Positions 25,381 through 27,492 of a stretch of 64,000 nt of DNA are shown here, in pieces. The notes beneath the pieces were generated by a model. That model saw nothing but the letters and a program-made list of their open reading frames with translations, searched no databases and had not been told where the DNA came from. How positions within the stretch are numbered: the stretch's first letter is position 1; each line of letters starts with the position of its first letter. The stretch lies in NCBI GenBank assembly GCA_000002435.2, contig CM018792.1; one strand, written 5' to 3'. The position numbers were made by a program, and so were the translations under genes. This DNA comes from Giardia intestinalis. Its lineage: Eukaryota.

Positions 25381-27492
25381 ATGTTCGGTAGACTTTTACT
25401 TGCTAGCGCTGTCTTGCAGCTAACATGGGCTGCATGTGAAGCAAATGGATTAGGTGGTGCTGGGAGCTGCAAGACGTGCGGAGCCACCATTGGTGGCAGT
25501 GAATATTGCAGTGAATGCAATGATGGGGCCAACTATGCTCCCGTAGATGGGATCTGTGCGAATGCTGGGCAAACGCCAGCTAGTACGCTTTGTCCGTAAC
25601 ATAGCGCCGGAAAATGCACACAATGTGGAAGCACCTCCTTTAAATACAAGGACGGCTGCTACCAACCCAACGACGGAAAGCCGGGGCAGAGCTTTTGCCT
25701 TGTGGCTAGTGGCTGAGTATGCACCGAGGCTGCTCCTGGATACTTTATCCCCACGGAAGTGGTAAATACTGAGCAATCCGTGGTTGCATGTAGTTATACG
25801 ACCGGAGTAGCAATAACAGCTGGCGGAAACACATACAAGGGCATTGCTGACTGCGCAGAGTGCGGCGCCCCTGACGCAACAGCCGGCGCTGAGGCCGGCA
25901 AGGTTGCAACGTGTACCAAGTGTGGAGTCAGTAAGTATCTCAAGGATAACGTGTGCGTAGATAAAGCCCAATGTAATTCTGGTAGCACTAATAAGTTCGT
26001 TGCAGTTGATGATTCTGAGAATGGCAACAAGTGTGCTTCTTGCAGTGATAGCCCTAATGGCGGCGTTGCTAATGTGACACCTGCACCTATCACTAGCAAT
26101 CTAAGAAGATCAAATGTATCAAGTGTACTGGTAACAACTATCTGAAAACCACAGGCGAAGACACATCATGTGTACAAAAAGACCAATGCAAAGACGGCTT
26201 CTTCCCCAAGGATGACAGCACCGACGGAATTGCCAATTGCGCCATGTGTGCCTTAGTTACTAGTCAATCAGGGGCTGCCCTCATTACATGCACCACTTAT
26301 GTAGTAGGATACAAACTTAGTGCTGATGAAACTAAGTGTGAAGCAGCAAGTAATTGCAAGACGCCTGGATGCAAGACATGCAATAACGAGGGCAAAGAGA
26401 ACGAGGTCTGCACAGAGTATGCTAGTGGAAACTATCTCACCCGGCGAGCCAGTGCATAGACAGCTGCAACAAGGTTGGGAATTACTACGGAGCAACGGAA
26501 GGAGCAAAGCAAACTTGCAAGAAGTGTGCTGTGTCCAACTGTAAGGCCTGTGATAATCAGGGGCAATGTCAAATATGCAAAGACGGATTTTACAAAAATG
26601 GTGATGCCTGCTCTCCGTGTCACGAAAGCTGCAAGACATGCAGTGCAGGTACTGCTAATGACTGCACTGAATGTCCCACTGGAAGAGCACTTAAGTACGA
26701 AAGTGATGGAGTCAAAGGCACCTGTGGAACTGGATGCACAACAGGCCAAAGTAGTGGTGCCCGTAAAACATGTGGGCTAACCATTGATGGAGCTAGCTAT
26801 TGTTCAGAGTGCGCCGCGGGGACAGAATATCCTCAGAATGGGGTCTGTACCTCAGCAACTGCTCGTGCCGCAGCCACTTGTAAGACCGGAAATGTTGTCA
26901 AGGGCGCATGCAGCTCATGCACCAATGGGTTTCTTCGTATAAACGGGGACTGTTATGAAACGACCAAGTTCCCTGGGAAGAGTGTCTGCACAACAGCACC
27001 AGGCGCTGATACTTGCACTTTGATGGCTTCAGGTTATTATATTGACGGTAGTATTAACCTTGTGGTTTGCTCTGATGGCTGTGCAAAGTGCACTACTTCA
27101 AGCACTTGCACGACATGCAAAGATGGGTATGCAAAAATCGGAAGCAGCCAAACATGTACAAAGTGTGATTCTAGCTGTGAAACATGCAACGGGCAGCTAC
27201 AACGTGTAAGGTATGTGCGACAGGATACTACAAGACTGTATTGGGAGAAGGCGCGTGCACATTCTGCGAAGGTAATAGCAATGGGGTCACTGGTATCAAT
27301 GGCTGCGTGAGCTGCGCTCCCCCGTCTGGCAACACTGGCCCTGTCCTCTGCTATCTCATGAAGGATAGCAGGAACACAAACAAGAGCGGCCTCTCCACGG
27401 GGGCTATCGCAGGCATCGTCGTTGCTGTTGTCATCGTCGAGGGGCTCGTCGGGTTCCTCTGCCGGTGGTTCCTCTGTCGAAGCAAGGCGTAG
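25381..27492 (+). pseudogene. VSP pseudogene (multiple in-frame stops/frameshifts, variant CRSKA tail)
   Basis: Starts with a VSP signal peptide (MFGRLLLASAVLQLTWAACEANG...). Reading frame is broken by a stop at 25597, a stop near 25700, and shifts near 26140, 26240, 26460 and 27190. VSP-like CxxC/GGCY-type blocks appear in three frames. It ends [34 protein letters not shown], with charged E/R in the TM and S for G in the tail. The poly(A)-like ACTTAAGTAGTAAAC has one mismatch. Confidence 0.7.

Follow-up and report, generated by a model that had tools for sequence, protein, structure and literature searches.

A decayed VSP gene in two identical copies within an inverted multi-gene duplication of Giardia intestinalis WB

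A stretch of 64,000 nucleotides from Giardia intestinalis (contig CM018792.1 of GenBank assembly GCA_000002435.2; hereafter the window) carries, at positions 25381-27492 of its plus strand, a 2112-nt sequence resembling genes that encode variant-specific surface proteins (VSPs). We find that this element is a VSP pseudogene (pVSP), lacking the uninterrupted open reading frame (ORF) expected of a functional VSP gene, and that it is present a second time as the exact reverse complement at 36436-38547 on the minus strand (100% identity by sequence comparison; mirror coordinate = 63928 - x). We consider it highly probable that the pair represents a non-functional, neutrally decaying VSP paralogue, situated within a multi-gene inverted segmental duplication in a cluster of VSP, high-cysteine membrane protein (HCMP) and NEK kinase genes of WB. 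Neither the pseudogene pair nor the duplication nor the reservoir idea for pVSPs is new, all three being on record in the reference annotation and published work; our analysis adds a base-level list of the lesions, their confirmation across sequencing technologies and a comparison with a second isolate.

Results

Three-frame translation of the pVSP revealed VSP-like coding sequence that passes through frames 1, 3, 2 and 1 in this order. Single-base insertions after 26073, 26442 and 27193 restore a continuous frame of 704 codons, and the repaired 704-aa protein matches the Giardia VSP family of Pfam (PF03302) with E=1.5e-178 and a score of 594 bits, the match extending over positions 2-397 of the 397 in the profile. 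Six lesions disable the frame, all located on the plus strand in the left copy: three in-frame stops and three one-base deletions in short homopolymers. Stop 1 (TAA, 25597-25599) stands where intact relatives have CAA (Gln), stop 2 (TGA, 25714-25716) replaces a Gly found in 37 of 37 homologues, and stop 3 (TAG, 26094-26096) falls on a position at which homologues have Glu. Frameshift 1 (26073-26074) reflects the loss of one T (TT>T, turning AAT TGT into AATGT), whereas frameshifts 2 (26442-26443) and 3 (27193-27194) shorten CCCC to CCC and GGGG to GGG, respectively. The longest stretch free of lesions is 359 nt. An earlier note, made from the letters alone, had described a VSP pseudogene with at least five stops or frameshifts, a degenerate tail and the same lesions in an inverted copy; the count proved slightly conservative and the description otherwise accurate.

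The decay is not confined to the reading frame, as became apparent from alignments of the repaired protein to the nearest intact relatives, which are 59-71% identical to it, and to 40 to 53 members of the family. Compared to the intact VSPs P0001-P0004 and P0033, the pVSP has suffered a 36-nt (12-codon) in-frame deletion, placed at about 26215, which removed SAGNKCLPCNDS between GACAGC direct repeats (plus strand, junction 26211-26225). Three invariant cysteines have been lost (Cys to Tyr at 26298 and 26418, Cys to Arg at 26762), and a GGCY motif reads GDCY at 26948, where the altered residue is G in 39 of 39 homologues; 25 CXXC motifs are present in the repaired frame. The membrane anchor and tail (27436-27492, plus strand) are likewise degenerate. 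Among 53 homologues, the anchor position occupied by E in the pVSP is G (48) or A (5), the position occupied by R is W in all 53, and the tail CRSKA contrasts with CRGKA in 53 of 53, so that neither anchor nor tail is conserved. In alignments, the N-terminal MFGRLLLASAVLQLTWAAC falls opposite the signal peptides of intact VSPs and is a putative signal peptide. Two other VSP features have been retained. The ATG is embedded in CAATGTT (25379-25385, plus strand), an initiator of the PyAatgTT type defined for VSP genes (PMC2996952), and at 27492-27511 (plus strand) we found GACTTAAGTAGTAAACGCGT, a VSP poly(A) motif of the extended form, with the motifs of both copies listed in supplementary file 5 of a recent preprint (10.1101/2022.03.07.483299). 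Programmed frameshifting or stop-codon reassignment was rejected as an explanation for the broken frame, since mutations have also hit invariant Cys and residues of the anchor and tail. A hidden gene on the opposite strand was also discarded, the antisense and flanking ORFs in and around the pVSP having no Pfam match.

Since all three frameshifts are one-base homopolymer deletions, their authenticity needed to be checked. The authors of the assembly reported homopolymer errors in the PacBio sequence, which were corrected only where Illumina support reached 50% or more (PMC7000408), and the lesions might accordingly be regarded as an artefact, with the frameshifts being PacBio errors and the second copy a product of the assembler. 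Independent data contradict this explanation. Two Sanger-era gene models of 2007 fix stop 1 (XP_001705642.1, 72 aa, corresponding to 25381-25599) and frameshift 3 (XP_001705635.1, 102 aa, corresponding to 27184-27492). Four Illumina-derived Logan contigs (L008-L011), one of which starts with a TruSeq adapter, match 26215-31045 and confirm frameshifts 2 and 3; L008, L010 and L011 are 100% identical to the window, and L009 (SRR13990248) deviates by a single nucleotide, having C4 instead of C5 at 27319-27323. This difference represents either a homopolymer length polymorphism or a read error. Finally, contig L012 from a second isolate (SRR3177751) aligns with 25635-28712 at 99.58% identity, with 13 mismatches and no gaps, and carries all three frameshifts together with stop 2. 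Thus, five of the six frame lesions are reproduced by Sanger-era proteins, Illumina contigs or the second isolate, and stop 3 is seen, for WB, only in the reference assembly. Moreover, homopolymer errors cannot account for three nonsense codons and at least six substitutions at invariant residues. The earlier note had named a single open frame, restored by re-sequencing, as the outcome that would refute it; no such frame emerged from the comparison of Sanger, Illumina and PacBio data, which concur on five of the six frame lesions. Most lesions are therefore genuine mutations and the artefact explanation is refuted as far as they are concerned, implying that the pVSP should stay annotated as a pseudogene.

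The second isolate also allowed us to place the lesions in time. Because the stop-3 codon of SRR3177751 is the ancestral GAG (Glu), stop 3 appears to have arisen later, in the WB lineage. In contrast, the three frameshifts and stop 2 are common to both isolates, which supports the view, taken in the earlier note from the shared lesions, that the gene was dead before the two arms of the duplication became identical. Judged from these sequences, the gene was probably broken already in the common ancestor of WB and SRR3177751, with decay continuing in WB. WB and L012 differ at six positions inside the pseudogene, and five of these differences alter an amino acid or create a stop; comparison with homologues indicated that four of them are derived in WB. 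The density of differences was not reduced in the pseudogene (6 in 1858 nt) relative to the downstream non-coding sequence (7 in 1220 nt; Fisher p=0.39), though the numbers are small. This substitution pattern looks like neutral decay, with no sign of sequence constraint. Every WB-derived change is present in both arms; accordingly, either the duplication is younger than these changes or the arms have been homogenised by gene conversion. Homogenisation is plausible, although not proven, because identical VSP genes occur in WB only as inverted pairs (PMC2996952) and because the architecture recurs in G. muris, where identical inverted pairs enclose NEK/ARP genes (PMC7641422).

The two pVSPs lie tail-to-tail on one chromosome, 8,943 nt apart, and form part of a larger inverted duplication composed of a left arm of 7784 nt (20412-28195), a right arm of 7792 nt (35733-43524) and a unique spacer of 7.5 kb (28196-35732). 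Over 7792 aligned columns the arms are 99.88% identical, with one mismatch, at position 20416 on the outer edge of the repeat, and one gap, an additional 8-bp GGGAGGAA unit located between genes near 25123-25140 / 38788-38813. Each arm comprises three genes: the 3' 945 nt of a VSP gene, an HCMP Group 1 gene and the pVSP. The HCMP gene, encoding 692 aa, is found at 22159-24237 on the minus strand and, as an identical copy, at 39699-41777 on the plus strand (KAE8304375.1/KAE8304377.1). The VSP of the left arm is C5-S1 (VSP-118, GL50803_00113024, KAE8304374.1; 20199-21356, plus strand), with the outer boundary of the repeat inside the gene, and its counterpart on the right is a CRP136-type VSP (GL50803_0050225; 42580-46044, minus strand). 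The outer boundary coincides with the end of the 120-bp repeat array of the latter (20.5 near-perfect copies, 43514-45975), and the two VSPs consequently have identical 3' 945 nt and unrelated 5' parts; CRP136 itself (GL50803_103142) was assigned 22 copies in the 2010 catalogue. A search for homology past the outer boundary found none, the boundary being abrupt and lacking a gradual decay. The preprint describes the pair GL50803_00113024 / GL50803_0050225 as "head to head" (10.1101/2022.03.07.483299). In the sequence, the two genes converge tail to tail on the interval 21357-42579 (21,223 nt), and the two HCMP copies are divergent. The spacer harbors a NEK kinase/ankyrin gene (31912-33954, minus strand), identified by Pfam Pkinase and Ank matches and by an exact match to KAE8304376.1.

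For eight of the proteins encoded in the window, an exact match exists among the WB C6 proteins in the range KAE8304366-KAE8304389, which belong to a chromosome of 2,761,001 bp in the PacBio reference. Outside the duplication, an Rfam scan of the window detected a tRNA gene (40-112, minus strand) at its start and a 5S rRNA gene (17394-17528, minus strand) in the gene-poor stretch between positions 15.8 and 20.1 kb, immediately left of the VSP cluster; these were its only hits, and it returned nothing in the arms. The 44-50 kb region is unusually GC-rich (63-67%). The IFT52 gene ("IFT complex B", KAE8304380.1; 48266-49525) has a paralogue of more than 90% identity on the same chromosome (KAE8304323.1).

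Discussion

We infer the following course of events and route to identical arms. The reading frame would have been lost in an ancestor common to WB and at least one other assemblage-A-type isolate. A second, inverted copy of a 7.8-kb segment containing the dead gene would then have been made, or else two arms of greater age may have been homogenised by mutual gene conversion. Either route would leave the same lesions in both copies. With the initiator and poly(A) motifs kept, low-level transcripts would be plausible, while a VSP product would be impossible. Short mosaic tracts in common with intact VSPs, which other family members have as well, would in the same scenario be a product of recombination as it is known for the family; they do not demonstrate that the pVSP acts as a donor.

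Several observations weigh against this account. Of the ORFs that cross the junctions of arm and spacer, the left one (27874-28227) was detected on 52 short-read (Logan) contigs, whereas its mirror at the right junction (35623-36054) is on no short-read contig of the protein collection; three ORFs from the right-hand part of the spacer are likewise missing there. With a true inverted repeat, short-read contigs would be expected to end at the two junctions alike, making the asymmetry unexpected, and the right arm/spacer junction is seen only in the reference assembly. Accordingly, many samples may lack the duplication or be polymorphic for it, the reference line may be the only one to have it, or abundance filtering may have removed one branch. 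The identity of the arms is, in addition, compatible with either recent duplication or ongoing gene conversion. Finally, a cDNA of the last 309 bp of the pVSP has been reported, with a tagged product localizing to the membrane (PMC3937270), and some RNA-level role may therefore exist.

The junction asymmetry also lends some support to the assembler having created the second copy. The missing right-junction ORF is uninformative rather than negative, however, as it could stem from gene calling and from contigs broken by the repeat. That the duplication is real in the reference line is argued by the 8-bp indel between the arms, their different outer flanks and the optical maps against which the authors checked the WB assembly (PMC7000408). 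Together with the independent confirmation of the lesions, this leaves an artefact very improbable. Contig L013 from the DH isolate (assemblage AII, AHGT01000073) corresponds to 4825-20264 of the window at 98.27% identity and terminates within the left VSP gene, some 150 nt short of the inverted repeat, suggesting that the repeat broke the assembly in DH too.

Regarding an RNA-level role, pVSP transcripts could act as decoys for VSP-targeting small RNAs, or a read-through hairpin could feed RNA interference on related VSPs. Compatible with such roles, the pVSP retains its CAATGTT initiator and extended poly(A) motif, the terminal ORF for which a cDNA was reported has 11 predicted miRNA sites (PMC3937270), and the inverted geometry would permit a hairpin. 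However, the two copies would yield sense transcripts of the same sequence, not complementary ones, a hairpin requires more than 9 kb of read-through past the poly(A) signal, pVSPs of G. muris are essentially untranscribed (PMC7641422) and, as noted above, the Rfam scan returned nothing in the arms. We consequently regard a regulatory RNA as scarcely credible.

The earlier note had further suggested a possible silent donor cassette kept in both arms; in this view, the pVSP pair would be a reservoir delivering short segments by gene conversion to expressed VSPs. Mosaic similarity of a kind typical for the family was observed. Along the repaired protein, the best-matching intact VSP shifts from P0014 (aa 21-120) to P0033/P0001 (141-300), P0002 (301-440) and P0025/P0006 (441-620), and a tract of about 225 nt (25481-25705, plus strand) has 91-100% nucleotide identity to P0014, an intact VSP at an unrelated locus of another isolate (contig L014), with flanks of 65-77%. 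On this sequence comparison, 25481-25705 is a clear recombination tract, for which either direction of exchange is possible. Short-read contigs end where k-mers are common to paralogues, and a reservoir function has been proposed for pVSPs as a class (10.1101/2022.03.07.483299; PMC7641422). On the other hand, intact VSPs show the same mosaicism among themselves and the tract carries no direction; clean stretches of at most 359 nt restrict what could safely be donated to short patches; and VSP switching in Giardia has been described as epigenetic, with no expression site (PMC2996952). For a maintenance of the copies by selection we found no evidence: substitutions relative to SRR3177751 look unconstrained, being mostly non-synonymous or nonsense and no less dense than in the non-coding sequence downstream, with the caveat of small numbers. 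A maintained donor cassette therefore appears improbable to us. A search for an intact positional orthologue found none, the P15 relative P0002 (contig L007) and P0014 residing at non-syntenic loci. Exact-protein look-ups for WB DNA with the NEK kinase, the 400-aa VSP, P0003 and P0033 gave no match; among the paralogues in WB are some that share aa 147-218.

A different possibility is that the arms are held identical by ongoing gene conversion, and not by recent duplication, with the pVSP pair exchanging patches of about 200 nt with expressed VSPs. Such conversion between arms fits the data because WB-lineage mutations, for example stop 3, are present in both arms; in a variant of this view, the inverted duplication may be a young, polymorphic structural variant. 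We rate this possibility as rather unlikely, and favor a neutrally decaying paralogue copied as part of the segmental duplication.

This interpretation agrees with what is known about the class. WB possesses 133 VSPs, 208 pVSPs (GL2.1) and 19 identical VSP pairs, 6.9% of its genome is duplicated, and multi-gene duplications reach up to 20 kb (Xu et al., PMC7000408). The exact 2112-nt sequence is listed twice, as the pVSPs GL50803_0097820 and GL50803_00d97820, in supplementary file 6 of Rodriguez-Walker et al. (10.1101/2022.03.07.483299), and our element does not differ from these entries in any respect, including the internal stops and the coding sequence distributed over three frames; the same split-frame pattern was illustrated there for another pVSP, GL50803_0050472. 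The left copy is presumably GL50803_0097820, as the old assembly linked this gene to the left flank. The pair also resembles the identical inverted VSP pairs of the vsp1267 type (14 in Adam 2010, 19-20 later) in that its members are identical, inverted and tail-to-tail on one chromosome and, as in some pairs, have a NEK-family gene between them. It differs in that its members are dead genes, in that the arms extend over 7.8 kb and three genes each, compared to 139-729 bp of identical flank in the described pairs, and in the distance between the copies (8.9 kb versus 2-4 kb). With silent-cassette systems, such as the VSG pseudogene arrays of Trypanosoma brucei, Borrelia vls and Neisseria pilS, the pVSP has in common that a pool of defective paralogues exhibits segmental similarity to expressed genes. 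Unlike these systems, however, Giardia lacks an expression site and is not known to convert such sequence into an expressed gene, its switching is reported to be epigenetic or post-transcriptional, and the pVSP lies in the interior of a chromosome and has retained promoter-like and poly(A) signals of its own.

Our data bear directly on the interpretation of VSP-117. In the 2007/2010 annotation only the last fragment of the pVSP was called, as a gene with no initiator, VSP-117 (Adam 2010). This 309-bp terminal ORF (27184-27492, plus strand; formerly VSP-117 / GL50803_97820, 102 aa with tail CRSKA; Adam 2010 supplementary file 1, XP_001705635.1) later served as a model VSP mRNA in a study of miRNA repression (Saraiya 2014, PMC3937270). 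While VSP-117 is identical to 27184-27492, including the CRSKA tail, it is the last frame fragment of a 2.1-kb pseudogene, with E and R in its anchor, and not a small VSP gene, and the initiator that was missing according to the 2010 table is present, as CAATGTT, at the true 5' end. The experiments on "VSP-117" (GL50803_97820) hence describe an artificial mini-protein, the tail of a dead 2.1-kb VSP. Beyond this correction, the private lesions and the stop codon of the WB lineage provide convenient markers for conversion between the arms or from pVSP to VSP; variants private to the pVSP include an ACG>ATG change at about 26241 and the codons of A356 and R436. If conversion between the arms is ongoing, recombination in the VSP family could be measured on the pVSP pair, whose lesions would make it a traceable substrate, and if the duplication is a young structural variant, its formation would be datable among WB lines.

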